IMG/VR virus record: IMGVR_UViG_3300025168_000080 | Span: 615 to 64,614 of that record | DNA: 64,000 nucleotides | From: a virus | Lineage: Duplodnaviria > Caudoviricetes | Strand: one strand, 5' to 3' | Shown: positions 2,357 to 57,071 of the stretch, piece by piece | How the letters are laid out: each line of letters opens with the position of its first letter | Position numbering within the stretch: position 1 is the stretch's first letter | Translations under genes and position numbers: made by a program | The notes under the pieces: model-generated | The model's database searches: none | What the model saw: only the letters and a program-made list of their open reading frames with translations | Told to the model about the DNA's origin: nothing

Positions 2357-2927
2357 GATAAAGTATGTAGAAGCCAGAGCTTTAATGTATACCTTAATAC
2401 GAAAATATTTAGGTTATACTTATTGGAAAATAGCTGATATGTTTAATCTGACACACGCAAGTATTCGACATGGTGTAGAAGAATTCCCTCATATGGTTGC
2501 TTATAATAAAGAATTAAAGGTAAAATATGATGATATACTCCATGAGTGGGTGGGTGGTGAACCTCAAGATTCTAATAATGAGCTAAATTTATTACAAAAA
2601 AAGCTCAAAGATTTGGAAAATGAAAACAAATTGCTTAATTTGAGCTTTAAGGACTTAAAAAAAAGTGTAGAAAATATGGTTTCGGTTAAAGATGATTTAA
2701 ATTATAACATTGACGATGTCACTAAAATATTTAATCATTCCTCCTGGACTGATAAAAAAAAGATTGACACCTTGTTGCAAATTGATTGTAATCAATATTG
2801 TAATTTAGGTAGTACTTCAACTGACGATGAAAGAAATGAAGTAAAAAGAAATTCTAAAATTATATATAGAACAATCCGACAGATAAATAGTTCAATTGGG
2901 AAGTTGTTACTAACATCAATGGATTAA
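2280..2927 (+). CDS. DnaA C-terminal (domain IV)-like HTH protein with coiled coil and additional C-terminal domain
   Basis: TRKIKYVEARALMYTLIRKYLGYTYWKIADMFNLTHASIRHG resembles the DnaA domain IV pattern R..IV.ARQIAMYL.R......L..IG..F..DH.TV.H. Confidence 0.7.
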   Translation: MEEIQKLREITAKHFSIPDIQNPTRKIKYVEARALMYTLIRKYLGYTYWKIADMFNLTHASIRHGVEEFPHMVAYNKELKVKYDDILHEWVGGEPQDSNNELNLLQKKLKDLENENKLLNLSFKDLKKSVENMVSVKDDLNYNIDDVTKIFNHSSWTDKKKIDTLLQIDCNQYCNLGSTSTDDERNEVKRNSKIIYRTIRQINSSIGKLLLTSMD

Positions 2928-2930
2928 TTA

Positions 2931-3122
2931 ATGGCTCAAATTTCGAAAGATGATTACCAAGCTATTGGTCATATTAACTATGTAACCAATCATCTTCACG
3001 ACTCAGTAGATGAGCTTTACGAAGACTTAATGGATCGTGACAACGATAGTGCTAAAGAAAAAGCACAACTAATATGTAAACTTTGTGCAGAGATTATACA
3101 ATCTCTGACGCATGAAATATAA
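2931..3122 (+). CDS. Hypothetical protein
   Basis: 63-aa ORF tightly packed in the operon. Confidence 0.6.
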   Translation: MAQISKDDYQAIGHINYVTNHLHDSVDELYEDLMDRDNDSAKEKAQLICKLCAEIIQSLTHEI

Positions 3123-3127
3123 ATGAA

Positions 3128-3448
3128 ATGAATAAATCAATTGCCGTAGAATTACAAGAATTTACAGAAACTATTGCTGAAAGATATTCTAAAACAAATA
3201 GGGTTGGAAATGTAAATAACGAAACGTTTTCAGTAGAAGAAATTATTCCCACTTCTGATCACACTGCTTGTGTTAATTTTGTAAAGACAGGAGGAAAAGT
3301 TGCCGTAGCTTTTTTTTATTACATAAATAAAGGAAGATCACAAGGATGGAAATATTTTTTTCCTACAGACTCTCATTTAAATGGCTTTCATGCTTTTTTA
3401 TATTATAAATTAGAAGCTGAAAGAAGAAATTATACTAAAAACTTTTAA
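3128..3448 (+). CDS. Hypothetical protein (last gene of the + strand arm)
   Basis: 106-aa ORF whose stop overlaps the stop of the convergent gene. Confidence 0.7.
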   Translation: MNKSIAVELQEFTETIAERYSKTNRVGNVNNETFSVEEIIPTSDHTACVNFVKTGGKVAVAFFYYINKGRSQGWKYFFPTDSHLNGFHAFLYYKLEAERRNYTKNF

Positions 3449-3714
3449 TAAAGTTGTATCATAAACTCTTTACTTATTTTTAATTCAGAACATTTTTCAT
3501 AATCTTCGTGTTCTGCAAAAAAATCCATTAATATATCATAAGCATCATCTTCTAAGGGCACAACAGCTTTTGTTGGATTAAATATAAAGCCTGCACCCTC
3601 TTCTCTGTTTAGTATTGATTCATATGTTTCACGACCTGTTAATATCAAGTAGCTATTATACATACAAGTATATTCATCAAAGTCATCCATACTAAACCCT
3701 TCTAACCTCATCAA
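3445..3714 (-). CDS. Hypothetical acidic protein (UVR-like C-terminal motif)
   Basis: 89 aa; FAEHEDYEKCSELK resembles the E.YE.A..L UVR-type motif; start overlaps the stop of the giant gene. Confidence 0.65.
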   Translation of the reverse strand: MMRLEGFSMDDFDEYTCMYNSYLILTGRETYESILNREEGAGFIFNPTKAVVPLEDDAYDILMDFFAEHEDYEKCSELKISKEFMIQLY

Positions 3715-20700: not shown

Positions 20701-22651
20701 TTGCCCAAGAAGGTGCATAATTTTGAATTGTACTTTGTATTCTATTTTTAAATACACTATTTTCTGGTGGAATAAATACAGTATTATATTCTGAAACTAA
20801 AACTGTTGAAGCTCGTGCGTATTCATCTAAATATACTATACCAGTTTCAAAATCTCTATTACTGTGCAATGTAGATTTGTCACTAATTTCGGTAAAAATA
20901 GCAGTAGCTCTAAGTAATTGATAGTACTCATACATGTCTGTTGTTTGAGCATTATCAGTACTACGAAATTGCATTGCTAATAATTGTATAGAAAATGAAT
21001 CTGAACCAGGTGTAGCAGAAATTTTTAAACCTTGTTGATTAGTACTATCAGTCACACTACTTAAAACTGATGTAAATGTACATTGGTTTTGAGGAGGATT
21101 AATTGCAGAGTTAAAAGCATCAGTTAATGAAAATCCACTTGCTGCTGTAGCTATAGGTTGAAAGTTTGTACCCTCAATAGTTCCTATTTGATTTTCAAAA
21201 TCTGCACTGGTTACTAAATCATATATACTTGAATAATCACTTGTTAAAGTAATTGTTGTATCTATACTTATATCTGGAGATTGAAAAGATGAATTTTCAG
21301 TATAACAAGTTGTTGTTGTTGTCCCGTTTATTAATGAGTGTTCAAATCGTAATTGAATAGTTAACTGTGCACCACGTACTAATTTATCAGCTACATTAGT
21401 TAAATTAAAAGTTGCCGTAGAATTAGGTACGGTAGTAGTTACTGAAGGATTAATCGTGTAAGATACTCCATTAGAAAAAGTACCGGGAGGTAAATTTATT
21501 AAATTAATTAGTTCTGAAATTAAAGATGTATTGTAATCAACAGCTATATCTTGCCCATTTTCATTTGTAATATTAAAACCATCTGTATAGTTTCCATACA
21601 TTAGTCGGTTACCCATAATAGTTTGTGCTTGGGCAATTAAAGGTACATTGTCATATAAACGTAATAATTCATCAGAACCTAAAACAGTATATATTTTGCT
21701 GTTTGTAAAAACATATTCTTGTTGCTGATTGTTACCCCACCCATAATCAGATTTTTTAAATCTTTCAATTACATAAATACTATTTGTGTTTGAATCTTTA
21801 TATAATAAATCTACTTCTTGCACTCGGCTACTACCTGTGCTAAAATTAATTCGTGCTCCATTAAAATTGTTTTCCATACCCGCATTATCATAATTACGAG
21901 TGTCAAACCTAAAGTTACCTGGCTGAAATGCAGGATTAGAAAATAATGAAGTTGCACTATATTCACCATTACCATATCTATATCTATAAGCAAAACTTAT
22001 AAATCTGTCTTTTAAGTAGTTCTCACCACCTGCAGCAGTTATTAAAGTAAATGTAGGCGCTGTTAAAGGGGTATCTCCTCCTGTTACAAGGTCCTCAAAT
22101 CCTGGTGGTTTTAAAACAACCGAAAGATCTTCTTCTTGAATACCATCAACACCACCACTTGGAAATGAATAAAAATCATTCACGTTAATTCTTCTTGGTG
22201 GGTTTTTGTCATCTGTAAAGAATAATAAATTTTCTATTTTATTAACACCAGTTATTAAAAATTTTGGATCGAAATTTAAAACCGATTGAGTAATAACGTG
22301 ATATCTTAAAACAGAATTGTTAGTATTAAAAGAGACAATCAAATCAAGTTTTATATTACTAACTCCATATTCTGGATCATGTACAAACCAATATAAAGTT
22401 TCTTCTGAACCATCTTCTAAAGCCCCTATACATGTAGCTGTTGTAGATAAATTTACACCATTAAAAGATAAAGTAGTTAATTGAGAATTACCTCGTGAAT
22501 TTTCTACCGCACCAATTTCAGTGGTTTCAGTAGAACCTAAGCGCACGTTCATAGCATCAATGTATTCACCCTCTGGGAGTAAACGCTCATCAATAGACTT
22601 GTTCATTCTTCCTTTTACAAAGGAAACGTAATCTAATTTAGTTTGTGCCAT
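17798..22651 (-). CDS. Tail nozzle / stabilisation (tubular B-like) protein with C-terminal extension
   Basis: N-terminus FVKGRMNKSIDERLLPEGEYIDAMNVR, LFFTDDKNPPRRIN, YGISFNPESF, YFTDTKR, LGGFDPYMDEYVL: beta-propeller nozzle motifs of crAss-like/flavobacterial podoviruses. Confidence 0.8.
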   Translation of the reverse strand: MAQTKLDYVSFVKGRMNKSIDERLLPEGEYIDAMNVRLGSTETTEIGAVENSRGNSQLTTLSFNGVNLSTTATCIGALEDGSEETLYWFVHDPEYGVSNIKLDLIVSFNTNNSVLRYHVITQSVLNFDPKFLITGVNKIENLLFFTDDKNPPRRINVNDFYSFPSGGVDGIQEEDLSVVLKPPGFEDLVTGGDTPLTAPTFTLITAAGGENYLKDRFISFAYRYRYGNGEYSATSLFSNPAFQPGNFRFDTRNYDNAGMENNFNGARINFSTGSSRVQEVDLLYKDSNTNSIYVIERFKKSDYGWGNNQQQEYVFTNSKIYTVLGSDELLRLYDNVPLIAQAQTIMGNRLMYGNYTDGFNITNENGQDIAVDYNTSLISELINLINLPPGTFSNGVSYTINPSVTTTVPNSTATFNLTNVADKLVRGAQLTIQLRFEHSLINGTTTTTCYTENSSFQSPDISIDTTITLTSDYSSIYDLVTSADFENQIGTIEGTNFQPIATAASGFSLTDAFNSAINPPQNQCTFTSVLSSVTDSTNQQGLKISATPGSDSFSIQLLAMQFRSTDNAQTTDMYEYYQLLRATAIFTEISDKSTLHSNRDFETGIVYLDEYARASTVLVSEYNTVFIPPENSVFKNRIQSTIQNYAPSWAKKYKFVVKPSKTAYETIYTNFFYNNPFDNVTHFKLDGDNQSKVKIGDRLIVKKDADGALSSLVETTVLDIEAQSSNFLNNANELGEDSEQLAGLYMQLKVSNFNASIKEDSIIDYGEFTRGSENAPTCSFLYTVTYPLYNYTAANTTVSPPILEATQNYTIPGGSIIDIKFGFRRRANNFLNCPERRVLFDKNFVAGQDYTDFRDWWNDTNIDVADIDEFAGVNPFNGTPQGRYNSTVVQPVGSVTDPNNDLVAARGNNIECQGENFKFDINFVQAIPGQADSPLYFGFRCGGKGCSDEIFFGGGGRKMTAFVDIVVQRADSTIIFETQPRDANEDIYFDASESFDIVRDAATGNYLHQSGGDVDTGEQNQTTSQDAIVTLDFMDSYVFGNGVESFKILDRIAARSVVMGQRALAVSNQDFKEVNRFASITYSGLYSFNSGVNNLNEFNLGLVNFKDIETSFGPIMILNARETDVLCLQEDKISIVQSGKDLLSDAVGGGAIVSTPLVLGKQIARIEEYGISFNPESFIQWGQYLYFTDTKRLAVLRLSSAGNAVSSNLTVISDTGMRSWFRDTFIEQLNTQKLGGFDPYMDEYVLSTNNFNVPIPEQVLGCGIELNLTSITTAKNFTFNFGSIVGQGTINYNVTGNATISILWNGVTTTSGVVTGSGSFTWNKTANSPQTAIITITPTGTVSATITPDCIPKVPITIIKCVINSGNDNSQTIHPEYKWADSVTVSPVDSDLAVLGTNSSVFSEYFSQTGVRSQGVFPYDGVNFSIRLNKINFDTYNWIYPSNNFKYLSSNTLYQNNATDVAALLAASTTIANSEVTTPSPNLRQATVNSLSLPIGNQYLYLIYDLRSITSQQLCYDATAVAEACCDCTFTCTAFSISSFADTSIEACTRAITNTNYHNGSSALPAPGDLVYTSSNCADDLLGTVGYASVGFYKISTSPNQYIQIGTNGLVLNVSNC

Positions 22652-36135: not shown

Positions 36136-37338
36136 TTAACATATGAACACTTGACCAACTACTCCATTAGCGTCAACCCTGTAACGTGTAGATCCAGCTC
36201 TGTAGTGACCAATACTTAAAAATGTTGTACCTGCTGAATCTGAATAAACAACATCATTTGCAACTGGGAATGTACCAGATCCATCATGATAATATGTTTG
36301 ATTTATAGTTGCAGTACATGCATTTTCTGGTCTTGCTGATAAAGAACTTGCATATGAAGTTAAACAAGCAGAGCATCCAGTGCTTATAGAATCAACGACT
36401 CCATTAACAACATATATAGCTGTATTAGAAGTAATTCTATAATATCCGTTTGTTAAAACACTCGCACCATTTGAGTCTGAAAAAACAAAATTACCAACTT
36501 GCGGTAAAGTATTTGTGTCAACCACAAAACTACCTCCTGCATTTCTGGCGAAATAATATGTTCTATCTTGCGCTGCACAACAAGATCCTTGGAAAGTACT
36601 ATTAACACCATTTGTTGTAAAAGAAGGTAATGTTGCAGGACATAATACTTTAACATTCCAAGCCGTACCAGAACAAGGTCCTACTACTTTTAAAGTTCCA
36701 GTTGTAGGTGTTAAACTTGGTTTAGGAATTACTAACGTATAATATATGTTTCCATTTGTTCCATTTAAGTTTGTATTAGTGGTTACCACACTTGTCGATC
36801 CACCATTCAAACCAAAAGAACTACCATTCCATACCGAAGTAGGTAATGTTTTTGGACTTTGAGATGCTAAAGTAGATGCTGTACAACCTGTTCTATCATC
36901 ATCACCTACAATATTTAAGTTATTACCTGTTCCAGCTGCATATCCATACGTATTTGAAGTTAAATCATTATATGTTGTACCATTAAACTCATAAGCAACC
37001 CCATCTGGCACACCTTGTGGGTAAAAATATACTACAATAGCACCTGTTGGGTTTCCACTTGTTATGGTTGCCTCAAAGTATCCAGTACCACTACCTGCAG
37101 ATAATGTGCCGCCACAAGGTATGTCTGGAGACGTAAATGATTTGCCATAAAATTCAGAGTAAGCGTGGGGAGCGTTTTGATCCACTGGCGTAGGAGTAGC
37201 ATCGTCATATCTTTTTACTAAAGAATCATCTTGAGGTGTACTACTACTTCCTGATAACGGAGCGTTGGTAGTACTTACTGTTGCAGACTCTGTATTTATC
37301 ATACTTGCTGATATGGTTCCTGAACTTGGTAATCCCAT
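36136..37338 (-). CDS. Tail tip/fibre-associated protein, paralogue of 16499-17788
   Basis: MGLPSSGTISASMIN...SEFYGKS N-terminal module typical of genes after S74-containing fibres; shares domains with 16499-17788. Confidence 0.7.
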   Translation of the reverse strand: MGLPSSGTISASMINTESATVSTTNAPLSGSSSTPQDDSLVKRYDDATPTPVDQNAPHAYSEFYGKSFTSPDIPCGGTLSAGSGTGYFEATITSGNPTGAIVVYFYPQGVPDGVAYEFNGTTYNDLTSNTYGYAAGTGNNLNIVGDDDRTGCTASTLASQSPKTLPTSVWNGSSFGLNGGSTSVVTTNTNLNGTNGNIYYTLVIPKPSLTPTTGTLKVVGPCSGTAWNVKVLCPATLPSFTTNGVNSTFQGSCCAAQDRTYYFARNAGGSFVVDTNTLPQVGNFVFSDSNGASVLTNGYYRITSNTAIYVVNGVVDSISTGCSACLTSYASSLSARPENACTATINQTYYHDGSGTFPVANDVVYSDSAGTTFLSIGHYRAGSTRYRVDANGVVGQVFIC

Positions 37339-40300
37339 TATTTTATCTTCTTTTTAAGATCTTCTATTTCCGCTTTTAATTCTTTTATGGCTTCTATTAG
37401 TAATCCAGATATGTTACCGTAAGCAACAGACTTCATACCCTCATCGTCTTCTTTTACAACTTCTGGAATAACTTTTTCTATTTCTTGAGCTATAACTCCA
37501 ATAGACTTTTCATTATCACCTATTTTATTAAACTCTACACCTCTTAATTTACTTACTTTTTCAAGTGAATTATCAATAGTTTTAATATTTTCTTTTACTC
37601 TAATATCTGAATAAGCTATAATATCTCCTGTAGCTCTAATAGTTCCACCGACATCAAGCTTATAACTTGGTCCAGTAACATTAATTCCTACATTACCACT
37701 ATTAAGAATAACCATTGTTTGACTTCCAACTGTATTTGTTCCATTAAAGAACTTAATACTATCACCTGCAAGTCTTAAAGTTTCTAAATTATTATTGTTG
37801 TTTTTTGCACTTAAACTTACTGCACTTTCTTCATAACTTGAGGTTAAAAATCTACTGCTTGTGTGAGTTACTACAAAAGGACCTGTAACACTGCTACTTG
37901 CCGTTTCAGTAGGTCCAATATTTACATTTCCACTTGAAAGTATTTGCATTACTTTTGTAGAACTTGAACCTGTGTAAAATGCAATTGAAGTGGTTGTTAT
38001 AAGACTTATTTGATTTGGTGTACCAAGTCGCGTACTACCATTTACAGTAATATAAGCGGTTGAATCACTATTTAATAAATTTAAACTACCTGCAGTTGTT
38101 CCACCTTTTATATTTGAGGTTGCAGTTGGTAAAACTAAATTACCTGTAGAATCTATACGCATTCTTTCTGTATCTACACCATTGTTTGTTCTTGTGTGAA
38201 ATGTTAATTTTCCACCAAAATCTCCATCTGTAGTATTGTCTTTTCCACCCCTAACAGAAGCCATATCAGTTACACTACCGCCAGAAGTATATTTTCCATT
38301 AAAAACAATACCATTATTTATACCTGAGTCGTAAGCAGCGGTATTGCTAAGCTTTATAGAATAAATTGTTGCATCACTAATGTCTAATTTAGCTCCAGGT
38401 CCAGTCGTTCCGATCCCAACGTTGCCAGGAATTGTTACATCACCATTATGGCCAACAACCATTCTTGAAGCAGAGTTAAGACGATCATAAATTTGGTAAT
38501 CTGTACCAGCACCTATATTGCAACCAGTTTCCCATTGATTATTTCCATCTGCTTTATACCATGTGCTACAATTTTGCCCACTTGTTGTAGATTCAATTGT
38601 TAATACGGAATTTGCGCCACTAACATGGAATACTGAGGTAGGAGAAGTTGTCCCGACCCCGACGTCGCCGCCGTGTAGAATAGTAACAGCTACTCCACCT
38701 GCTGTACTTGTTCCATTATCATTAAGGGGTTTTATTGTATATTTAGTATCGTCTACACTTGTAGCAAAAACCCTTTGATTAGCAGTTGCTCCATTGTCAG
38801 ATAATACAATTCCTGCAAAAGAATCTCCTTCAATTATCATTTGTCCTCTATCAGTGCCACCGTCTATGTGTAGCCTTGTAAAACCATAAGATGCACTATG
38901 TAAAGTTCCAGGACTTGTCGTCCCAATACCAACATTTCCAGTTTGCTTTATTACCATTTGCATTCTTGACGTGATAGCTCCACCTGCTATTCCGCTTGCA
39001 GTAGAACATAAAAAAGAATGCTCACCTACCTGTTGTTGATATAGATTAGCATAACCTGGATCTGAAGTAGTACCATTTATAAACTGGGCACCTGATGTTG
39101 AAAATTTCCAATTAGTAGTAACACACGTAAAAGAATCTTGACCAACTCCGTCTGTATGGCCTTGAATTGCGCTTTGTTCACCTATTCTTAATTGAGCAAC
39201 ATAAGTAACCATTCCAGTCTCTGGCGTAATACCAAGACCAATATTTTGATTAGCTACATCTTGTTTTAAAACACTATTACCTAAGGTATCACCATCTGGC
39301 GTCCACATAGGAATAGTTCTTAATGTACCTGATCCACCTGGTACACCTGGTATATCACCACCTAAAACTTTAACTACATTACCAGAAGCGTCGGTACCTA
39401 ACATGTAAGTTGGAGTACCTGTGTTGTTTGTGGAATTGTAAGCATTGAATTTAATTGCGCCAGTACTACCAATATTTAAAACTTCTATACCTGCAATTGC
39501 ATCATCTAACATTCTAATAGCAAAAGTAGGCTCTCCATCTCCTGTACCCTCTCTTTTACCACCAAGAGCAACTCCATAATTATTAGTTGTTGAAGTACCA
39601 AAAAACATATTTGTAAAACCGCCATCGTCTGTAGTTGCGGATGGGTGTAATCTTAAAAAACAATCTCTATCAAATTGAGTTGTAACTTGTGATCTTTGAA
39701 CTTCTAACTTTCCTGTAGGCCCAGTTGTCCCAATCCCGACGTTACTTCCTGGTAACAATAATAAATCAGAAGTTGCATTTATTTTTAAATCAATACCAGT
39801 TGTTTGTATACTTCCCATAGTAGACTCGCTGCCAGCAGAACCATACTTAAAGTTCATAAATCCAACACCTGAAGTATTTACTGTAATATCACCACCTGTT
39901 ACATCAAGTTTAGAATCAGGATCATCCGTCCCGATACCTACGTTGCCAGAACTCTCTATAACCATTCTTTTTACTCCTGCTGTTGTTCCATTAGGAGCAG
40001 TCATAAAGTAAATTTCTCCACCATCAGCACCTGTGGCGACTTGCTCTAAATGTATAGAAGCTAAATAACCCCTATTACTTTTTCCTGTTAATCTACCACC
40101 TGCTGTTGCTACATCTAATTTTTGATGTGAGAAAATTTGACCTGCTTCATCAACCTCGATTGTTCCTGCTGTTGTACCAATAGTAATTGCATCATTTGTA
40201 CCACCTATTGATTCACATTTAAAAGCCCAAGCTTCATTTCCTGTATGATTTATATTAAAAAATGTACTATTGTCAGTAACATTAAAACTTTGTACAAATG

Positions 40301-43300
40301 ATGTAGCAGTTGATGTAATATTTCCTGTTGTAGTTATAGCACCTGAGTCTATTGTTCCTGCAAAAGTTGCGTTAGCGCCTGTTAAAGTTAAAGTATCACT
40401 TGTTCCTAAAGATGCACTATTAGATATTCTAAATGAATTATCAGTACCATCTTTTCCAATAGTCCATTGTGTTGTGTTTGTACCGCTGCCATTGTCTGTT
40501 CCAAATTCTAACTCAGCATCACTACTTGCTGATATTAACATACTCGTAGCACCGTTTGACCTTAGTAATTTAAAGCCTAATGCGTCGCCAGTTACCTGAG
40601 TTACTTGACCATTAAACACATGGTCATCTGTAGTTGCGTTACCTAAAGTAGCATTTCCATTAACGTTAAGATTTCCTGAAAAAGTTGCGGTACCTGCATC
40701 GGTTAAATGCATTCCAGTAACAGCTGGAGATGCTGTATTTTGAAAATACCAACCATTTGATTGAAATACTGTTGCTCCTTCCCCGGTTTCTCTCAAATAT
40801 GTATTTTCTCCAGCAGCATGCCAAATTTTAAAATCTCCGCCACCACCAAACTCTAATTTTTTATCATCAAGTAGTACCACAGCACCTGCAAAAGTTGTGT
40901 TATTACCACTAACTGTTATTGGTGCATTACCTAAAGTTTCTGAATCTGTAACAGAACTTGGTCCTTCCCATAAAGCTACAGTTTGCCCTGTACCTGCGCC
41001 TGATAGTACAGATGAGTTATCTACTTTTTGCCATTCACCAGAACCAACATCATCATTCCATATTACCCAATCACCAACACTCCAAGTGTTAGGCTCTGTG
41101 CCTGCTCCATTAGGTGTTGCGCTACCTGCTTCACTACAGATATAGTAGTATCCAGATGTTTGTGTTACACCACTTAAATCAGGGGCTCCATATATTGGGG
41201 AAAATATGTATGCGCTTGCTGTTGCACTTATTGCTGTGTCTAATTCGTAAACTGTAGAAGAAGTAACGGATGCTACTTTTACAGTACCTGTTATTCCAGC
41301 TCCTGTAACTACAGCTCCAACCAAAGTAGGTGTATTACCAGCAGCATCAAGTATAGCTGCAGAAACTGTTAATGTCGTACTGGAAGAAGTTGTCCCTGTT
41401 GATGTAGCGGATATACCTGCCTGCCAGGTTCCTCTATATATTGTAGCTCCAGTAATTAAACCGTCTACATAACCTTTTGTTGTTAGAGTAGATGATGCGT
41501 TTCCAGTAGATGTAGCTGTTGTTGCAAATGCCTGTGTTCCAAAAGTTGCGTTTTGAAGATTATCAAAACCTAATACATCTGTAAAAGTTCCACTAATTCT
41601 TTTTTGAAGTTTAAATGAACCCGCACCAGTGTTAACTACTTGTCTATATGTATTGTCTGTTTGACTATCATCAGCTCCAATATATAATTGTCCTGCGTCA
41701 ACAAACATATTATCTCTTGAGGTAACCGTGAGAGCACTTGTGTTTCCCGCAAAATTTGCGTCGTTATTTGCTCCTATTGTTATTGCAGTGCCATCATTAG
41801 TTATTATTTTAAAAGTATCATTGGATATTGTTCCTAAGTAAACATCTGAATTATTAGATTGATATGCACCAAAAACCGATGTACCTCTTGTGCTTCTAAT
41901 TATATTACCACCTGTTGGAGCAATATCTACCATATAACCATTAGCAGGTGTTATTCCACCAATACCAATAGCACCTGCAAAAGTTGCATTTGAAGAAGTG
42001 TCTAAAGTTAAAACCTCTGTGTTGTTAGTACCAAATCTTAAAGCTTGACCATCTTGTGTACCAATACCAAAAGCTGCTCCTGTGCTTTGTATTATACTTG
42101 AGCCTGCCCCTAATCCAAACCTTGCATTAGCAGAAGATCCTACATAAATATTTTGTGTACCATCAGTAACCCTGTAGTTTTGTGCTGAAGTTCCTACTAT
42201 TGAGACATTGCCTGCAAAAGTTGTATCTCCTGAATTTAATATTTCAAAAACATCTAATCCATTTCTACCAATTCTAAATTTACCTGATGCACCTATGTTT
42301 TCTATAAACCAAGTGCTATTACTATAAGTAGTATCAGAAGTTCCAAAATATATAGCTGGTCTACCTGCGCCAAAACTTCCTATTTTAACTTCATCAACTG
42401 AACTACTTGCAGCAGATGTGGCAGCTAAATTACTAAACGTAACCCCTAAGTCTGTTGTTTCAAACTTTTTAGAATTGTCGTAATATAATTCAACTGCTGC
42501 GTTTTGAGCAGCTCTAATAATGCTTTCTGTACCACTGGCAGATCTAACTATAAAATTAGGCGCATCAATTCTTAAATCTGAACCTGAACTAACAATATGA
42601 CTTGCGGTTCCATCGTGAAATAATTGCATATCTCCACCACTTCCAAACTTTAATCTATCATCTGTAGATCCGCTTGAATCTAAAAAAGTAACAACAGCTC
42701 CTGCAGTCATTGTACCACCAGCAAGTGGTAAGAAAGGTCCGTTCCAAGTTCCTCCCTCTGCTGTAATATTTCCAGATGCATCTGATACCAAAGTACCTGC
42801 CCCGTAAGTGTTGAATTTAATAGCACCGTCTGAAGCAATACGCATTTTTTCTGCTGCGTTAGTCCAAAATCTCATAGAATTATCACTATGTTGGTACCTT
42901 AAACGACCAACATCAGCATCACTTCCATCTCCAAAAACTACTTGACCATTATCATCTGTTCCAGATATTATTGACATACCTGAATTATTAGTGTTGGAAA
43001 TTGTAAAAGGGTGTGAACCACTTAGAGTAGGTATTGTGGTTGAACCACCTGACACGTGTAGTACACTACCAGGAGTAATCGTACCAATCCCAACTTTGCC
43101 TGAGCTATCAATGACCATTCTTGCTGTACCACCTGCGCTAACGTCGTTAAATGTTAAATAACCACCATCAGTCTCAATTTTATAATATCTTTCACTATTT
43201 TGAATACCTAAATTAATAGGTTCACTGCCAGTAGTAGAAAGATGTAGTTTAGCAGTAGGATTAGTCTCCCCGATACCGACGTTGCCTGAACTATCAATAC

Positions 43301-43589
43301 GCATTCTTTCAGAACCTTGAGTAAACCACCTGTGATAGTTAGCACCTAATGCGTCTTTAACAATTTGATAATCTGTTGAAACAAAAGCGCCATCTGAACT
43401 TCTTCTTGTATCAAAAGTTAAATTATTACCACCTGAGATTGTTGTAATATTGTATGTATTAGTAGCATCGGTATCTTCTATATAAATTGAAGGTGACGTG
43501 CTTGATAAGTGAAGCAAACCCGAGGGCGTAGTCGTCCCAATACCTACCTTACCATCTACTGAAAATCCACTTAACCATGTAAAAGCCAT
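37338..43589 (-). CDS. Long modular tail fibre with C-terminal intramolecular chaperone (peptidase S74)
   Basis: 2083 aa; repeated RM.I...GNVGIGT..P junctions; C-terminal SDIRVKENI...GVIAQEIE...VAYGNISGLLIEAIKEL plus coiled coil. Confidence 0.92.
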   Translation of the reverse strand: MAFTWLSGFSVDGKVGIGTTTPSGLLHLSSTSPSIYIEDTDATNTYNITTISGGNNLTFDTRRSSDGAFVSTDYQIVKDALGANYHRWFTQGSERMRIDSSGNVGIGETNPTAKLHLSTTGSEPINLGIQNSERYYKIETDGGYLTFNDVSAGGTARMVIDSSGKVGIGTITPGSVLHVSGGSTTIPTLSGSHPFTISNTNNSGMSIISGTDDNGQVVFGDGSDADVGRLRYQHSDNSMRFWTNAAEKMRIASDGAIKFNTYGAGTLVSDASGNITAEGGTWNGPFLPLAGGTMTAGAVVTFLDSSGSTDDRLKFGSGGDMQLFHDGTASHIVSSGSDLRIDAPNFIVRSASGTESIIRAAQNAAVELYYDNSKKFETTDLGVTFSNLAATSAASSSVDEVKIGSFGAGRPAIYFGTSDTTYSNSTWFIENIGASGKFRIGRNGLDVFEILNSGDTTFAGNVSIVGTSAQNYRVTDGTQNIYVGSSANARFGLGAGSSIIQSTGAAFGIGTQDGQALRFGTNNTEVLTLDTSSNATFAGAIGIGGITPANGYMVDIAPTGGNIIRSTRGTSVFGAYQSNNSDVYLGTISNDTFKIITNDGTAITIGANNDANFAGNTSALTVTSRDNMFVDAGQLYIGADDSQTDNTYRQVVNTGAGSFKLQKRISGTFTDVLGFDNLQNATFGTQAFATTATSTGNASSTLTTKGYVDGLITGATIYRGTWQAGISATSTGTTSSSTTLTVSAAILDAAGNTPTLVGAVVTGAGITGTVKVASVTSSTVYELDTAISATASAYIFSPIYGAPDLSGVTQTSGYYYICSEAGSATPNGAGTEPNTWSVGDWVIWNDDVGSGEWQKVDNSSVLSGAGTGQTVALWEGPSSVTDSETLGNAPITVSGNNTTFAGAVVLLDDKKLEFGGGGDFKIWHAAGENTYLRETGEGATVFQSNGWYFQNTASPAVTGMHLTDAGTATFSGNLNVNGNATLGNATTDDHVFNGQVTQVTGDALGFKLLRSNGATSMLISASSDAELEFGTDNGSGTNTTQWTIGKDGTDNSFRISNSASLGTSDTLTLTGANATFAGTIDSGAITTTGNITSTATSFVQSFNVTDNSTFFNINHTGNEAWAFKCESIGGTNDAITIGTTAGTIEVDEAGQIFSHQKLDVATAGGRLTGKSNRGYLASIHLEQVATGADGGEIYFMTAPNGTTAGVKRMVIESSGNVGIGTDDPDSKLDVTGGDITVNTSGVGFMNFKYGSAGSESTMGSIQTTGIDLKINATSDLLLLPGSNVGIGTTGPTGKLEVQRSQVTTQFDRDCFLRLHPSATTDDGGFTNMFFGTSTTNNYGVALGGKREGTGDGEPTFAIRMLDDAIAGIEVLNIGSTGAIKFNAYNSTNNTGTPTYMLGTDASGNVVKVLGGDIPGVPGGSGTLRTIPMWTPDGDTLGNSVLKQDVANQNIGLGITPETGMVTYVAQLRIGEQSAIQGHTDGVGQDSFTCVTTNWKFSTSGAQFINGTTSDPGYANLYQQQVGEHSFLCSTASGIAGGAITSRMQMVIKQTGNVGIGTTSPGTLHSASYGFTRLHIDGGTDRGQMIIEGDSFAGIVLSDNGATANQRVFATSVDDTKYTIKPLNDNGTSTAGGVAVTILHGGDVGVGTTSPTSVFHVSGANSVLTIESTTSGQNCSTWYKADGNNQWETGCNIGAGTDYQIYDRLNSASRMVVGHNGDVTIPGNVGIGTTGPGAKLDISDATIYSIKLSNTAAYDSGINNGIVFNGKYTSGGSVTDMASVRGGKDNTTDGDFGGKLTFHTRTNNGVDTERMRIDSTGNLVLPTATSNIKGGTTAGSLNLLNSDSTAYITVNGSTRLGTPNQISLITTTSIAFYTGSSSTKVMQILSSGNVNIGPTETASSSVTGPFVVTHTSSRFLTSSYEESAVSLSAKNNNNNLETLRLAGDSIKFFNGTNTVGSQTMVILNSGNVGINVTGPSYKLDVGGTIRATGDIIAYSDIRVKENIKTIDNSLEKVSKLRGVEFNKIGDNEKSIGVIAQEIEKVIPEVVKEDDEGMKSVAYGNISGLLIEAIKELKAEIEDLKKKIK
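38403..43553 (-). repeat. Eight dispersed 24-bp GC-rich junction repeats (consensus GGC AAC GTN GGK ATY GGG ACG ACT)
   Basis: Copies at 43530-43553, 43263-43286, 43077-43100, 39924-39947, 39723-39746, 38916-38939, 38646-38669 and 38403-38426. Confidence 0.8.
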
Positions 43590-51483: not shown

Positions 51484-53106
51484 TTAACTTGTTTTAATTC
51501 TTGCGTGTGTAACAATAGCGTTTGTGCTTAAAATTGTAGTAGCAACAGATACTGCATTAGTCAATGCATTTTTAGTAACCTTACAAGGATCGATAATTCC
51601 TAACTCATACATATCACCATACTTCTCATTTTTAACATCATATCCGAAGTGTGCGCTCTTGTCTTCTAATTCATCACAAATATTTCCAGCTTCAATCCCA
51701 GCGTTTTCTAATATCTGATAGAATGGTTCTTGTATAGCTTGAGCTAATATAATAGTAGCAACATCATCCTCATTATAAAAATCTGAAGGAATCTGTGATA
51801 ATTTATCTATCATATAGTCTCCAATATTATACAAAGCTAATCCTCCTCCTGGAATTGTACCACTTTCAAGTGCAGACTTGACTGCACATACCGAGTCATC
51901 GACTCGGTCAAATTTTTCATTCTGCTCTACATCTGAATCACCACCTACATAAATACATCCAATTGCACCACTAAGATTAGCAACACGTTCGTCTATAAAT
52001 TTACGTTCACTTAAGTTACTGGTGTTTTGTTGTTGTTCTTTAAGTTCAGATATTCGTTGTTGTATTTCTTCAGTTAGTTGGTTATGCTTTATAATTACAG
52101 ATGATTGTTTACCTACTATAATTTTATCAACGTGTCCAAGATCAGAAGTTTTTATTAAACTTAAATCATCACCAGTCTTTTCAGAATAGTAAGTTGCTCC
52201 AATAGACACGGCAATGTCTTGCATTAACTCGTGTTGTTTAAATCCAAAGTTTGGTGGAACTATATTACAAAACTTTAATCCATTACGAACAACGTTAGCT
52301 GCAAGTGTGTTGACAACATTTGTGGATAAATTACCTATGATTAAAAATTTCTGATTGTTTTGTATAATTGGTTTTAGAATATTTTCTATTTGCAATATAT
52401 TACTTACATCAGTATCACACACTAAAACTTTTACGTCTTCCAGGATACACTCATCTTTTCTTTGGTTATTAATAAATAACGTTGAGGTATACCCACGATC
52501 AATTCTAATTCCATTTGTAACTTCCGCATATGTTTCTGAAGTCATTGATTTTTCTACAGTAACAATTCCGTTAGGACCTACCTTGTTGTAAGCCTGTGCA
52601 ATTATAGAACCAATTTCTGAATCATTGTTTGCAGATATTGTTGCTACATCTAATAATCTTTTCTTACTTACTTTTTTAGAAAGTATATCTAATTTTTTAT
52701 TTACTTCTTTTGATTTAGATAGTATGTGTTTTACAACCTCAATGGTATTGCTTTTATGTTTCTCTATTAACTCAGTGCCTCTGTTTATTAAACACTCAGT
52801 TAAAACAATTGCAGTAGTTGTTCCATCACCAGCTGTGTTTGCAGTTCTATTAGCTGCGTCCTTCATCATTTGTATAGAAAGGTTCTCAATTGGATTATCT
52901 AAAAATACGCTCTTAGCTACAGTAACTCCATCTTTTGTAATAGTCATTCCTCCTACATGTTCTGGGGATTCTATTAAAACGGTTTTACCGCGTGGGCCTA
53001 ACGTACTCTTAACTGCTTTTGAAATTTTTGTGATTCCTGAAATAAGTTTATTTCGTGCTTCAGAATCAAATGATAAGTCTTTAGGTATGTAACCTTGTGT
53101 GCTCAT
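51484..53106 (-). CDS. groEL: Chaperonin GroEL
   Basis: AVKSTLGPRG, ITKDGVTVAK, AGDGTTTA, GGGLAL, GIIDPCKVT; 540 aa. Confidence 0.97.
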   Translation of the reverse strand: MSTQGYIPKDLSFDSEARNKLISGITKISKAVKSTLGPRGKTVLIESPEHVGGMTITKDGVTVAKSVFLDNPIENLSIQMMKDAANRTANTAGDGTTTAIVLTECLINRGTELIEKHKSNTIEVVKHILSKSKEVNKKLDILSKKVSKKRLLDVATISANNDSEIGSIIAQAYNKVGPNGIVTVEKSMTSETYAEVTNGIRIDRGYTSTLFINNQRKDECILEDVKVLVCDTDVSNILQIENILKPIIQNNQKFLIIGNLSTNVVNTLAANVVRNGLKFCNIVPPNFGFKQHELMQDIAVSIGATYYSEKTGDDLSLIKTSDLGHVDKIIVGKQSSVIIKHNQLTEEIQQRISELKEQQQNTSNLSERKFIDERVANLSGAIGCIYVGGDSDVEQNEKFDRVDDSVCAVKSALESGTIPGGGLALYNIGDYMIDKLSQIPSDFYNEDDVATIILAQAIQEPFYQILENAGIEAGNICDELEDKSAHFGYDVKNEKYGDMYELGIIDPCKVTKNALTNAVSVATTILSTNAIVTHARIKTS

Positions 53107-53136
53107 AAGAATTAAATTTAATTAAATTTGTTAGAA

Positions 53137-53144
53137 CAAATATA
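53137..53144 (-). promoter_or_regulatory. Bacteroidota -7 promoter box TATATTTG (groEL operon)
   Basis: Exact TAnnTTTG; the same TACTATATTTGT context recurs at 53635-53642 upstream of 53617. Confidence 0.65.
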
Positions 53145-53166
53145 GTATAATTTTATTAAAGTAAGT

Positions 53167-53308
53167 TATGTTGATTATGTTAAAGTTTTTACTTCTACTT
53201 ACTACTATAGTAATCTATTCTTTTTTTTATTTTTTTATTTCTACAATTTGATTCTTTTTTTAACATAACTAACATAATAAATATAAATAACTAATAATCA
53301 ATAAGTTA
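53167..53308. repeat. Origin-like element copy 1 (inverted repeats, AT-rich spacer, IHF-consensus site)
   Basis: TATGTTGATTATGTTA (53167-53182), CTATAGTAA (53205-53213), T tract, TAACATAACTAACATA (53261-53276), AATCAATAAGTTA (53296-53308). Confidence 0.7.
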
Positions 53309-53425
53309 AACTATGTTGATTTAATGTTATACTATGTCAATGTACTTTATATATGTTGGTTTAACAAAAAAGAGACTTTGTTTTACGAAAGCCTCCCTTT
53401 ATCAAAACAGAACAATTGGGAAATT

Positions 53426-53617
53426 TTAATATTCAAAAATATTTTTACTGCCATCCATACGCATCTTAGCTCTTTCAATACCATCTGCTATAGAGTCAAT
53501 CTTATATTGTTTTTTCATTTGCTTTTTATATAAAGCTGCTTCAGCTATACCCGAAAGTCCATCAGGACGATTGTTTATTAGCCTACCATTTTTTACTGTT
53601 AATCCAGAATAATCCAT
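53426..53617 (-). CDS. Hypothetical protein (first gene of the minus-strand arm)
   Basis: 63-aa ORF preceded by a TATATTTG box at 53635-53642. Confidence 0.7.
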   Translation of the reverse strand: MDYSGLTVKNGRLINNRPDGLSGIAEAALYKKQMKKQYKIDSIADGIERAKMRMDGSKNIFEY

Positions 53618-53649
53618 ATCTATTTTATTTATTACAAATATAGTAAAAA

Positions 53650-54060
53650 TTTTTTAGAACGTCAGACATACGGAACCTTAGTGTTATTATATGATATGCG
53701 CAACGTACCCCCCATTGGGAAAGTCAAATGTTTTTCTCTCGAAGGGACATTTCCTTTTTTTTTTCTGCAACTTTTTCAGAATTCTATGTGCCACTACCCT
53801 TGCCTCCACCTATACTTATGTGTACACTACATAGCCTACCATCATGACTATGATTAGATACAGATAACGGACGTATTGTAGCCTTCCCTTGTTCCACCTT
53901 CCCCTAAACAGAGAGAAGAGAGACAGAGAGCCTTCCCTTAGCACCCCAACGGACACTTAAACTAATAAACATTTGCACCCCAAAAGCTGCGAGTTGCGTT
54001 TAGTCTAAGTAACTGTATCCCAGGAACTTACAAATAGAATTAGAACAATAAAAGAAATCA
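53650..54060. other. Non-coding strand-switch region; candidate genome terminus/packaging region
   Basis: About 400 bp with no ORF, locally higher GC, short repeats CCTTCCC x3 and GCACCCCAA x2, between the divergent arms. Confidence 0.5.
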
Positions 54061-54073
54061 AATAGAAAGGACG

Positions 54074-54105
54074 TTTGTGTATGTAAAGAATTAGTATTAT
54101 ATTAG
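54074..54105 (+). promoter_or_regulatory. Early promoter (Bacteroidota -33/-7 type)
   Basis: TTTG (54074-54077), 20-nt spacer, TATATTAG (54098-54105; one mismatch to TAnnTTTG), upstream of the first early gene. Confidence 0.65.
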
Positions 54106-54134
54106 AGTATTATTAATATTTAAATAGAATTATT

Positions 54135-54506
54135 ATGAACACTAAAAACAGTACAATTATGAACAATTCAACAACAGAAGCAAAGCATGTTTCTACACCA
54201 TCGGACTACTCACAATGTAAGTCAGATGCAATTATTAAGTTTACTTATTTCGCTAACAACTTCCACCACAATTTCATTGAAGAGGTATGGGGAACACACG
54301 CTTTAGGACAACACTTAAGAGATAAGTGGGATACGCTTGGACATCAATTGATGGCATTCAAAACGGCATCACAACACATCAAGGATGGCAACTACTACGG
54401 ACATGCTTTGAGTGGAACTACGAACTTCTACAAGTTCTATATGATGCTTGATAGCTACAACAAAGAGTTGCTTAACAATTACATTTCAAACAATTATAAT
54501 CACTAA
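54135..54506 (+). CDS. Early hypothetical protein
   Basis: 123 aa; an alternative start is preceded by ACAATT. Confidence 0.7.
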   Translation: MNTKNSTIMNNSTTEAKHVSTPSDYSQCKSDAIIKFTYFANNFHHNFIEEVWGTHALGQHLRDKWDTLGHQLMAFKTASQHIKDGNYYGHALSGTTNFYKFYMMLDSYNKELLNNYISNNYNH

Positions 54507-54525
54507 TATTAAAACACACACAATT

Positions 54526-54759
54526 ATGAGTAAATTAATCGTAGTAAACGGTAGTGAAGATGGGATACAAGGAGTATTCACAAACAAGAAGTTAGCATTT
54601 GAATGTGCAAGGAGTTATGCAGAATCTGGAGCAGAGAATTGTCTAAAGGGTATGACATATGCAAAGTTTTGCAAAGAGATGACTGCAAATATGTATTGTC
54701 AAGTTGGTGAGGGCTATGGGGTTGCATATTGTACATCTTACTTTAAAAACGAGTGGTAA
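54526..54759 (+). CDS. Early hypothetical protein
   Basis: Likely start MSKLIVV after ACACACAATT; the ORF-track start at 54448 overlaps the upstream gene. Confidence 0.65.
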   Translation: MSKLIVVNGSEDGIQGVFTNKKLAFECARSYAESGAENCLKGMTYAKFCKEMTANMYCQVGEGYGVAYCTSYFKNEW

Positions 54760-54762
54760 GTT

Positions 54763-54811
54763 AGTTAACTGATGAGTCCATAAGGACGAAATGCCGAGAG
54801 GCATCTTAACT
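54763..54811 (+). ncRNA. Type I hammerhead ribozyme
   Basis: Stem I AGUUAA/UUAACU; core CUGAUGA (54769-75); stem II GUCC-AUAA-GGAC; GAAA; stem III UGCC-GAGA-GGCA; cleavage triplet AUC ending at 54805; intergenic. Confidence 0.95.
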
Positions 54812-54828
54812 TAAAAAAATACACAATT

Positions 54829-55497
54829 ATGAACACAGTAAAACAAAAATCAACAGTAAAACACAAAACATTCTCTATTCTTGTAGATAAGATGAACAAA
54901 AGATGGAAATCAGATGGACGTCCTCAAGATAACCACACACACTATGAACACAAAACCTTCACACGTCAAGACATACACAAGGCAATATGGGTTGCTCAAG
55001 GCAATGACATAGAGACTTACGTGGTTCGTCAAGGTAACTACGGTACGTCAATCAAGTCTTGGATAGATGACGAAGGACTACTTGAGCGTATCGGTAGAGG
55101 AGTCTATCATCTAAGCGACAATGGTTATAAGTTTGGTAATCGTTCATATGAAGAAGGGGTTAAACTCATCCGTAGTATCAATGAAGATAAAATAGAGGAA
55201 AGACGTAAAGCAGTTGAAGAGCGAAACAATCTACCACACTTTAAACATGCAAAGGAATTCCAACACTTAGTTGGGTTGTCTATAGTTAAGGTTAGATACT
55301 GTACACCAGAAGAAAGAGATAGTTTAGGATGGTATAACCAACCAATTATATTACATATGTCGGATGGTTCTTTAATGTTTCCACAAACAGATGATGAAGG
55401 GAATGATGGTGGTGCATTAGCGTTATTTAACGACAGAGGTAATTCAGATTGTGCTTACACCATTAGTGAATTAGATTATAAATATGGTGATGTATAA
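54829..55497 (+). CDS. Early protein with wHTH-like N-terminal part
   Basis: 222 aa; GLLERIGRGVYHL wing-like motif; C-terminal DDEGNDGGAL domain. Confidence 0.7.
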   Translation: MNTVKQKSTVKHKTFSILVDKMNKRWKSDGRPQDNHTHYEHKTFTRQDIHKAIWVAQGNDIETYVVRQGNYGTSIKSWIDDEGLLERIGRGVYHLSDNGYKFGNRSYEEGVKLIRSINEDKIEERRKAVEERNNLPHFKHAKEFQHLVGLSIVKVRYCTPEERDSLGWYNQPIILHMSDGSLMFPQTDDEGNDGGALALFNDRGNSDCAYTISELDYKYGDV

Positions 55498-55503
55498 TAC
55501 AAC

Positions 55504-55545
55504 GGTATGCATGGTGCATTGGGGAGTTCGATTCTCCCCATACCA
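55504..55545 (+). ncRNA. tRNA-like mini-element (acceptor stem plus T arm, no anticodon arm)
   Basis: GGUAUG/CAUACC closing stem, T stem GGGAG/CUCCC with loop UUCGAUU, short UGG-containing linker; intergenic. Confidence 0.65.
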
Positions 55546-55578
55546 CGACAATAATGTCAAACAATTAAATACGCAATT

Positions 55579-55983
55579 ATGAAAAATTCAGTAGAGTCCT
55601 TTGATGACTTAAACTTCAACAAACACAAAGCGTGTAAAGGCGTTCAAGCGTTTCACGAGTTCCCTAACGGCAACACAATCTCAGTAGTAGGTGGTGAGGG
55701 CTTATATGGTGATGGTGTAGTCTCATTTGAGGTTATGACTAACATTGAATCAATGAACGGTGAATCTGGTGTCTTAGGATGGCAATCACGAGTACAAGTA
55801 AGTGAGATTATGAATTCACTTCGTTATAGAGGAGGGCTAACACCCAAAGCTGCGTTTGATCTTTTAGAACAAGCGATTGACAATCTACTAAGATTAGAAC
55901 AATTAGGTGAGTCAAATGCACACTTCCAAAGTGCTAAATACACACACACACAAATCAAAAAAGCAATTAAAAACTTAAGATAA
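55579..55983 (+). CDS. Early hypothetical protein
   Basis: 134 aa; GCAATTATG start context. Confidence 0.7.
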   Translation: MKNSVESFDDLNFNKHKACKGVQAFHEFPNGNTISVVGGEGLYGDGVVSFEVMTNIESMNGESGVLGWQSRVQVSEIMNSLRYRGGLTPKAAFDLLEQAIDNLLRLEQLGESNAHFQSAKYTHTQIKKAIKNLR

Positions 55984-55988
55984 TAATT

Positions 55989-56405
55989 ATGGAAAACACA
56001 TTTAAACACAGACAAACACAGTTGACAAAAGAGTCAACACTAATGGAAGCATTTCAATATAATCTTGACTGTTATGACGATGAAGTCATTGACAAAGAAG
56101 ATTTTATCAATGCTATGGAACAGTGGATATCACATCTCACACTACCAAATCTTAAACGAGAAATTGACGTTGTAATAGATAAAGTAAAAGAAGAGATAAT
56201 AGACGTGTTCAGTGACGATGATGTTCTGCCTAAAAACTGGGTAGAAATGCAAAAACACATTGATACAAATGAGTTCTTTGCAGACTACTTAACAGACTTG
56301 AGTTTTGACTGTGCAACAGTCATTACAAATAAAGTTGATGAGTGGTTGAGAGAACAACGAAATCAAATAAATAGTATTAACAATTGGAAACAAAAAGATA
56401 ATTAA
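55989..56405 (+). CDS. Early hypothetical protein
   Basis: 138 aa acidic; tightly packed. Confidence 0.65.
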   Translation: MENTFKHRQTQLTKESTLMEAFQYNLDCYDDEVIDKEDFINAMEQWISHLTLPNLKREIDVVIDKVKEEIIDVFSDDDVLPKNWVEMQKHIDTNEFFADYLTDLSFDCATVITNKVDEWLREQRNQINSINNWKQKDN

Positions 56406-56407
56406 TT

Positions 56408-56629
56408 ATGGAAATTGAAAATTCAAGAGTATTAGAATGTGTATGTGATATTGCATCAATGATTACACACGAAAAATTTGGTGCAAGAGCCACCAAAGAA
56501 ATACAGGATGGACTAAGTGAGTCCCAATGTATAGTATGGACAGATGATGCACAAGAGTGCTACAACGATATGTTTGATTATATCGAAACCATAATAATTA
56601 ATAAATTAAAACTTAAAATAAAACCATAA
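56408..56629 (+). CDS. Early hypothetical protein
   Basis: 73 aa; 2-nt gaps to neighbours. Confidence 0.65.
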   Translation: MEIENSRVLECVCDIASMITHEKFGARATKEIQDGLSESQCIVWTDDAQECYNDMFDYIETIIINKLKLKIKP

Positions 56630-56631
56630 TT

Positions 56632-56823
56632 ATGCCTAAAAAATCAAGACAAGAATTGGAAGATGAATTTATGAATGAATTCACTCCATCAAATTTAATT
56701 GAGAAAATCTCGTTAACATTTGGCGACAGACACGAACACATAAGTTCTGACTTTATGCCTATGAAAGAACACATGAAAAAATGTGAAGAAATAATAATCA
56801 AATCAATTAATAAAAAACAGTAA
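56632..56823 (+). CDS. Early hypothetical protein
   Basis: 63 aa; tightly packed. Confidence 0.6.
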   Translation: MPKKSRQELEDEFMNEFTPSNLIEKISLTFGDRHEHISSDFMPMKEHMKKCEEIIIKSINKKQ

Positions 56824-56825
56824 CT

Positions 56826-57071
56826 ATGAAAAAGTACAGAAAAGTAAACGGATGGAATTTCGAATTTGTAAGTCAAAATGATGGTGACGACGAATTCTAC
56901 CAATGTAGAGGTGACGTTATGTATGATGACGAACACGACGAGATTCCAGAACCTTCCTTATGGGAGGCATCAAATATATTACAAAAACAATTAAACCAAG
57001 AAGGATACAACTGCGAAGCAAACCACTCAGAAAAGGGTTGGGTAGAAGTAACTATATATTCTAAAAAATAA
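56826..57071 (+). CDS. Early hypothetical acidic protein
   Basis: 81 aa, D/E-rich, ends HSEKGWVEV. Confidence 0.65.
   Translation: MKKYRKVNGWNFEFVSQNDGDDEFYQCRGDVMYDDEHDEIPEPSLWEASNILQKQLNQEGYNCEANHSEKGWVEVTIYSKK

Follow-up and report, generated by a model that had tools for sequence, protein, structure and literature searches.

A predicted type I hammerhead ribozyme between two genes in the replication arm of an uncultured marine phage, probably of Flavobacteriia

The window analysed here, a stretch of 64,000 nucleotides (positions 615 to 64,614 of IMG/VR record IMGVR_UViG_3300025168_000080), comprises nearly the entire record, which is 64,614 bases long, is rated 100% complete and has a G+C content of 32.5%. 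Three very long ORFs on the - strand (3711-12380, 17798-22651 and 37338-43589, encoding 2889, 1617 and 2083 aa, respectively) belong to the leftward arm, which is presumably structural. The same strand carries, at 51484-53106, the gene of a full-length GroEL-type chaperonin (PHROG 5725, E 1e-128; Pfam Cpn60_TCP1), homologues of which are encoded, at 48-83% identity, by 36 viral contigs. The + strand arm, in which the element described here is located, also encodes a DNA methyltransferase and an exonuclease, as well as a primase/helicase whose closest homologues in isolates belong to phages of Flavobacterium, Nonlabens, Polaribacter, Cellulophaga and Maribacter. The host of this marine phage is probably a member of the Flavobacteriia, and the genes of the arm can reasonably be regarded as early or middle genes.

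Two co-directional + strand genes flank the site. The upstream ORF (54526..54759) encodes 77 aa from a probable ATG at 54526; a mechanical ORF list extends it to a TTG at 54448, and the ATG is the most likely start because the homologue in a related contig (L124, 3019..3252, also 77 aa) begins at the corresponding ATG. The downstream ORF (54829..55497) encodes 222 aa. Neither protein has a match in Pfam, PHROG or NCBIfam, or a usable match in the Atlas. Consecutive small genes were observed to share an A/C-rich leader ending in ...ACACAAUUAUG, whether or not a hammerhead is present (window 54507-54528 and 54806-54831; L125 ~2975-3003; L124 2990-3021), and this shared leader is probably a translation-initiation region in a host that lacks Shine-Dalgarno pairing.

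In the divergent gap between the two strands, TAAATTTG at 53123..53130 (+) is a possible -7 promoter element of the Bacteroidota type, and from 52500 to 55127 the + strand has no other match to that consensus. This -7-like motif could mark the start of a rightward transcript bearing the ribozyme, and between 52900 and the ribozyme no terminator-like site was found on the + strand; since the motif lies upstream and no such site intervenes, the arrangement is consistent with a polycistronic transcript across the site. A scan for sigma-70-type promoters gave 13 sites, with 13.9 expected. Contigs from three sequencing runs recorded as RNA and one guessed to be RNA (0.05-0.07 of words each) come from relatives and have no coverage of 54614-54916, the stretch around the site.

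The 69-nt gap between the stop codon of the upstream ORF (TAA, 54757-54759) and the ATG at 54829 holds a hammerhead motif at 54763-54811 (+), whose helices I, II and III comprise 6, 4 and 5 bp, respectively, all of them perfect Watson-Crick pairs. The 5' strand of stem I (AGUUAA, 54763-54768), within which lies a second in-frame UAA of the upstream ORF (54766-54768), pairs with the 3' strand UUAACU (54806-54811), and its partner covaries in relatives. It is followed by the catalytic core strand C3-A9 (CUGAUGA, 54769-54775), identical in homologues except at the variable position 7, and by stem-loop II (54776-54787), in which GUCC (54776-54779) and GGAC (54784-54787) enclose the loop AUAA (54780-54783). 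The core bases G12 A13 A14 (GAA, 54788-54790) then lead into stem-loop III (54791-54804), in which AUGCC (54791-54795) and GGCAU (54800-54804) enclose the loop GAGA (54796-54799) and which includes the A15.1-U16.1 pair (A54791-U54804). A hammerhead core requires C3 U4 G5 A6 N7 G8 A9, G12 A13 A14, the A15.1-U16.1 pair and H17 (not G), and all of these bases are present here: CUGAUGA, GAA, A54791-U54804 and C54805.

Stems II and III are capped by loops and stem I is open, the topology of a type I hammerhead, as the original prediction had proposed; the complete core, the three perfect stems, the 69-nt gap and the 23-nt leader that it described were likewise correct in every coordinate and count. 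Hammerheads cut themselves at a specific site in a Mg2+-dependent reaction, the ends of which are a 2',3'-cyclic phosphate and a 5'-OH. By the class numbering and the sequence, the scissile bond is predicted to lie directly after C17, between C54805 and U54806, with the cyclic phosphate on the upstream and the 5'-OH on the downstream side; the position and ends named in the original prediction thus agree with the established chemistry of the class. UUAACU would then constitute the first 6 nt of the downstream product, and the 23 nt from the predicted cut to the start codon (54806-54828) would form an A-rich leader that is predicted to be unstructured. The U at position 1.7 (54812) is unpaired, lies opposite U54762 and is a candidate tertiary partner of A54783, the last base of loop II.

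A purpose-built descriptor detected exactly one motif over both strands of the window, and a search of the window with models R1 and R2, filters off, gave no second hammerhead, the next best scores (13.1 and 12.3 bits) falling on sites that are not hammerheads; the 64.6-kb genome has one copy. The chance expectation was estimated from 2000 dinucleotide-preserving shuffles of the window, in which type I or type III motifs were counted by per-stem minima: a motif with all stems of at least 3 bp arose in 324 shuffles, one with all stems of at least 4 bp in 27, and one with stems of at least 6, 4 and 5 bp in two. A cruder measure, requiring at least 15 base pairs in total and at least 2 in each stem, was reached in 20 of 1000 shuffles; it was dropped in favour of the per-stem minima because single long hairpins in the shuffles suffice to reach its threshold. 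By itself, the motif is moderately improbable, at about 1e-3 per window, and not decisive in a large scan; it is its conservation with compensatory changes that marks it as real beyond chance.

The comparison with Rfam covariance models that had been suggested for this site produced no family, within the hammerhead clan CL00010 or outside it, at its gathering score, for either the whole window or the local 181 nt. The whole window returned nothing from Rfam at E<=1, and RF00163 (Hammerhead_1) returned nothing from the genome at E<=10. Within the local 181 nt, Hammerhead_3 scored 23.9 bits (gathering score 48.5) in the wrong register, while RAGATH-1 (RF03152) scored 18 bits (gathering score 56.3; E 0.73) in the right topology, so that the element falls short of membership in RAGATH-1, whose gathering score includes the upstream hairpin of that family. 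No defining base is missing, and the sub-threshold scores are a limit of the models for short forms with an open stem I.

Folding of the 181-nt context gave base-pair probabilities of 0.99 for stem II and 0.8-1.0 for stem III. Stem I, with five A-U pairs and one G-C pair, is weak, with a pair probability of ~0.03 in the same context. It competes with a shifted 8-bp register, UAAGUUAG/UUAACUUA (window 54757-54813), which nearest-neighbour rules favour by 2.3 kcal/mol (-15.3 vs -13.0), and the minimum-free-energy fold is a three-way junction with stem I in this shifted register. The possibility that the 8-bp register serves as a conserved switch was considered and rejected, as this register, which L003 shares, is impossible in L123. 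The triplet that precedes the cut, AUC, is also rare, being present in only four of the 154 type I motifs in the loci compared, three of which are the copies of the window, L003 and phi19:3. AUC is described as essentially absent among natural hammerheads (PMC1636495); according to the same account, which concerns a single viroid context, AUC and GUC ribozymes were equally active when purified, and AUC was the less efficient during transcription (PMC1636495).

Conservation was examined by a blastn search of 50,697 phage records with the 4 kb at window 53000-57000 as the query. The sole match was to Cellulophaga phage phi19:3 (two database records of one genome), and it covers window 54765-54819, which is the hammerhead. 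In phi19:3, the element occupies 21769-21817 on the minus strand of record KC821608. It is flanked by the co-directional genes gp051 and gp050, shares their strand and sits a few hundred bases inside a rightward block that diverges from a leftward block. Relative to the window copy, it has one additional stem I pair, C at position 7, AGAA as loop II and GUGA as loop III; one stem III pair is changed on both sides (C-G to U-A), and the core bases are otherwise unchanged. A second relative, L123, was found through the upstream protein (78% identity), the gene of which is directly followed by the hammerhead; here two stem III pairs are changed on both sides, and loop II is 5 nt long. Across the window, L123 and phi19:3, every stem difference is compensatory.

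Further relatives share one side of the locus. L003 and L124, which are one contig, carry an identical hammerhead 3' of the same upstream gene, followed by a different gene. Homologues of the downstream ORF were found in seven viral contigs. In one of them, L127 (35% protein identity), a type I hammerhead whose stems II and III differ from those of the window stands directly before the gene; in another, L125, the gene is 77% identical and is preceded by a similar leader that starts at the stem I 3' strand, by no hammerhead, and by a different upstream gene.

For a quantitative comparison, a covariance model built from 19 other phage hammerheads, with the window and phi19:3 excluded, gave the window site 61.5 bits and the next best site in the window 12.3, a separation that is partly circular as the seeds were gathered with an 18-base pattern taken from the window. 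A sample that is independent of the motif was obtained by anchoring on the chaperonin: 36 viral contigs encode a GroEL homologue, 25 of them with at least 2.5 kb of upstream sequence. Model R1 gave 20 matches in 13 of the 36 loci, one match (L134, 19 bits) being doubtful; all lie upstream of the GroEL gene and on the opposite strand, as in the window. Among the 25 contigs with sufficient upstream sequence, 11 have a match at E<=1e-3. The alignment of the GroEL-anchored matches (A5) has 97.9% of its 243 cells paired and shows two-sided changes in 12 of its 15 pairs; for a second set of relatives (A4), the values are 100% of 147 cells and nine of 15 pairs, and both alignments, being fitted to the model, lean towards structure. 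Covariation in the seed alignment (A2) was not counted, its rows having been chosen for pairing, which would be circular.

The search for covariation in related genomes that had been put forward as a check was therefore borne out, with compensatory changes in all three helices and a core kept as that of a hammerhead. Taken together, these comparisons indicate that the RNA fold and all the catalytic bases have been maintained by selection, while the DNA on either side is no longer recognisably similar. The hammerhead is nevertheless dispensable, given that L125 is without it and only 11 of the 25 GroEL relatives have a match. Furthermore, the L124 junction that precedes the homologue of the upstream gene has a hammerhead whereas the matching junction of the window has none, and this difference indicates that hammerheads are gained and lost junction by junction between close relatives.

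The window copy is one of an abundant and already described class of intergenic phage hammerheads. The 18-base pattern CTGANGAGTCCNNNNGGACGAAA, taken from the window, matched at least 120 viral contigs, and classification of 132 of the pattern matches, among the matches listed, gave 82 of type I, 41 of type III and nine that are neither. From these listed matches, 75 distinct type I motifs were obtained, 46 of which are intergenic by crude ORF calls. Where an upstream gene was called (43 of the 46), it is co-directional in 36 cases, and where a downstream gene was called (42 of the 46), in 38; three motifs have no called upstream gene and four no called downstream gene. Stem I of the intergenic motifs is often overlapped by the upstream stop codon, and the distance from cut to start codon has a median of 32.5 nt and is mostly 19-47 nt. 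The window copy, 3 nt past the stop codon and with 23 nt from cut to ATG, is typical of the class.

A regularity that may reflect tertiary structure emerged from 66 distinct type I motifs of loci L001-L122, selected by the pattern from among the matches listed. Position 1.7 complements the final base of loop II in 56 of these motifs (A-U 32, G-C 13, U-A 11), compared with a mean of 24.2 upon permutation, and none of 10000 permutations reached 56; as many of the motifs are mutually related, the count stands for fewer independent events than it suggests. In 53 of the 66, stem I measures exactly 6 bp, and 51 of these 53 obey the rule, to which the window conforms with A54783 and U54812. This covariation looks like a one-pair tertiary contact that varies isosterically. 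Contacts between loop II and stem I give hammerheads fast cleavage at physiological Mg2+. A conserved A-U Hoogsteen contact between loop II and a U next to position 1.6 has been described in crystal structures of natural hammerheads (PMC2553840; PMC2632901), and because A54783 and U54812 are the two bases of that pair, the window element looks, on sequence grounds, like an 'extended', physiologically active hammerhead rather than a minimal one. As those reports describe them, the hammerheads of sTRSV and Schistosoma (Chi et al. 2008, PMC2553840) and of CChMVd (Dufour et al. 2009, PMC2632901) also share with the window copy a 4-bp stem II with an A-ending tetraloop, a stem I of 6 bp and, immediately past position 1.6, a U (PMC2553840; PMC2632901); they differ from it in that their stem I is closed by a loop, whereas that of the window is open (PMC2553840; PMC2632901). 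In addition, the pair in the phage class, covarying as A-U, G-C and U-A, looks Watson-Crick, in contrast to the A-U Hoogsteen pair of the known structures.

More than one hammerhead is carried by 29 loci, and the copies within a contig lie on one strand in 29 of 29 cases (six copies in L064, seven in L078 and five in L003/L124, for example; L136, L151, L154 and L162 are further such loci). In L124, five one-strand type I hammerheads lie within 1.8 kb (2890-4704; at ~2890, 3256, 3555, 4024 and 4651) and separate three single ORFs, of 77, 79 and 133 aa, from one another and from a pair of 90 and 94 aa. Among non-identical pairs within a contig, stem I is identical in 17 of 96, stem-loop II in one of 96 and stem-loop III in four of 96; among other pairs, stem I is identical in 88 of 7654. 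One contig has six copies with what is essentially a single stem I, two of them with a G-U pair, and stem I sequences recur between phages whose stems II and III differ. That stem I stays identical among the copies of one genome as stems II and III drift raises the thought, which we regard as unlikely, that phage hammerheads are the boundaries of RNA 'cassettes' rather than mere cut sites, and that the lone copy of the window would be a remnant or half-site. If this were true, the RNA of a single gene, once cut on either side, could rebuild a complete hammerhead from its own two termini, and ligation could then close it into a circular mRNA or link it to a further cassette.

We consider it probable that the motif is a functional type I self-cleaving hammerhead and that the RNA in which it is embedded is a polycistronic + strand transcript of the phage's replication/early arm; self-cleavage of this message is the likely mechanism. 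Stems II and III would fold first during RNA synthesis; UUAACU (54806-54811), once emerged, would close the weak 6-bp stem I, and the contact between A54783 and U54812 may aid docking of stems I and II. The 2'-OH of C54805 would then attack its own 3' phosphate. The upstream product, with the 77-aa gene, would carry the entire ribozyme body at its 3' end, terminated by a 2',3'-cyclic phosphate, the downstream product, from the 222-aa gene onward, would begin with a 5'-OH and the 23-nt A-rich leader, and the two halves would separate thanks to the AU-rich stem I. The effect would be to separate the fates of the neighbouring cistrons with respect to decay and perhaps translation.

The original prediction had gone further in expecting the 5'-OH end to stabilise the downstream mRNA, and had likened the process to the maturation of T7 early mRNA. 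The glmS ribozyme of Bacillus, by self-cleavage, places a 5'-OH on the coding fragment that marks the mRNA for decay by RNase J1; the element predicted here resembles it in that self-cleavage within an mRNA would put a 5'-OH on a coding fragment. As the glmS case illustrates, a 5'-OH does not imply stabilisation, because the direction of any such effect depends on the RNases of the host. T7 early mRNA is processed by a host protein, RNase III, which cuts a duplex and leaves a 5'-phosphate and a 3'-OH. The predicted event resembles this processing in that an early polycistronic phage transcript would be cut between cistrons and the upstream product would have a structured 3' end; unlike in T7, the window RNA would cut itself, leaving a 5'-OH and a 2',3'-cyclic phosphate.

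The short and fairly constant distance from cut to start codon across the class (mostly 19-47 nt, and 23 here), together with the A-rich leader predicted to be unstructured, would also suit a ribozyme whose main role is to switch on downstream translation, in that a short leader with a 5'-OH might load ribosomes better where Shine-Dalgarno pairing is absent, as a bacterial equivalent of the translation that depends on ribozymes in reports on RNA viruses. A precedent of a kind is the 5'-UTR of a fungal chrysovirus, where self-cleavage is reported to be essential for translation initiation (PMC13725137), but that system is eukaryotic and cap-related. The comparison of junctions also speaks against such a role: L125 has the homologous gene and a similar leader without a ribozyme, and the upstream gene of the window has a leader of the same type without one, although its L124 homologue is preceded by a hammerhead. 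Moreover, 17 nt separate the uncleaved hammerhead from the ATG, and the start codon is left unoccluded. We think it improbable that translational activation is the main function.

Two readings would assign cleavage little or no importance. The hammerhead may mainly be a selfish or modular boundary, that is, a conserved recombination point for the exchange of cassettes, from the cleavage of which the phage gains little or nothing. Homology indeed breaks at the element, with L003/L124 sharing the upstream gene and the identical hammerhead but not the downstream gene, and L125 sharing the downstream gene and the leader from the stem I 3' strand but neither the upstream gene nor the hammerhead; its presence among relatives is patchy, and stem I recurs between phages while stems II and III differ. 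Strict conservation of the core and compensatory changes in all helices, however, show selection on the RNA fold and not on DNA identity only, and a role in recombination would be compatible with cleavage; we hold an element serving chiefly as a boundary to be distinctly unlikely. It is highly improbable, finally, that the site matches by chance or survives as a decayed and inactive relic, with two hairpins that have another role or none. An equally good motif did arise in two of the 2000 shuffles, the Rfam scores are sub-threshold, and stem I is thermodynamically weak and faces a competing register; yet this is the only segment of the 4 kb that is conserved with phi19:3, the stem differences between the window, L123 and phi19:3 are all compensatory with no core base differing, and the motif occupies the same strand and position in the GroEL-anchored relatives.

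The cutting of a transcript by phage hammerheads, the reading that we prefer for the window, is not a new idea (PMC3088659; PMC6765202). Perreault et al. (2011) described hammerheads in phage intergenic regions, including multiple copies that flank single prophage genes (PMC3088659), and proposed that long phage transcripts are processed into gene-length mRNAs (PMC3088659), while a 2019 review, in its remarks on such ribozymes, stated that more work was needed to define their purpose (PMC6765202). As far as the 2011 account describes them, those hammerheads resemble the window copy, and equally that of phi19:3, in having a complete core and an intergenic position and in being co-directional with small flanking phage genes. 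The clustering reported there has its likeness in the relative L124, where five hammerheads flank single genes or a gene pair. The window differs from such clusters in that its genome has a single copy, which has the rare AUC triplet and remains sub-threshold in Rfam models built on such data. A search of full-text literature for hammerhead and Cellulophaga together returned no paper; supplementary alignments of earlier surveys, which lay outside this search, may already list the element.

The Rfam hammerhead models thus overlook a type I class that is both compact and large; one 18-base pattern matches at least 120 viral contigs. Two regularities of this class are worth testing, namely that a base of loop II covaries with position 1.7 and that the copies in one genome have matching stem I sequences. 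The window adds one example, from a marine phage lineage that probably infects Flavobacteriia, to this class, and the copy in phi19:3, a phage with a cultured host, offers a tractable system in which to establish what an intercistronic hammerhead does for a phage.
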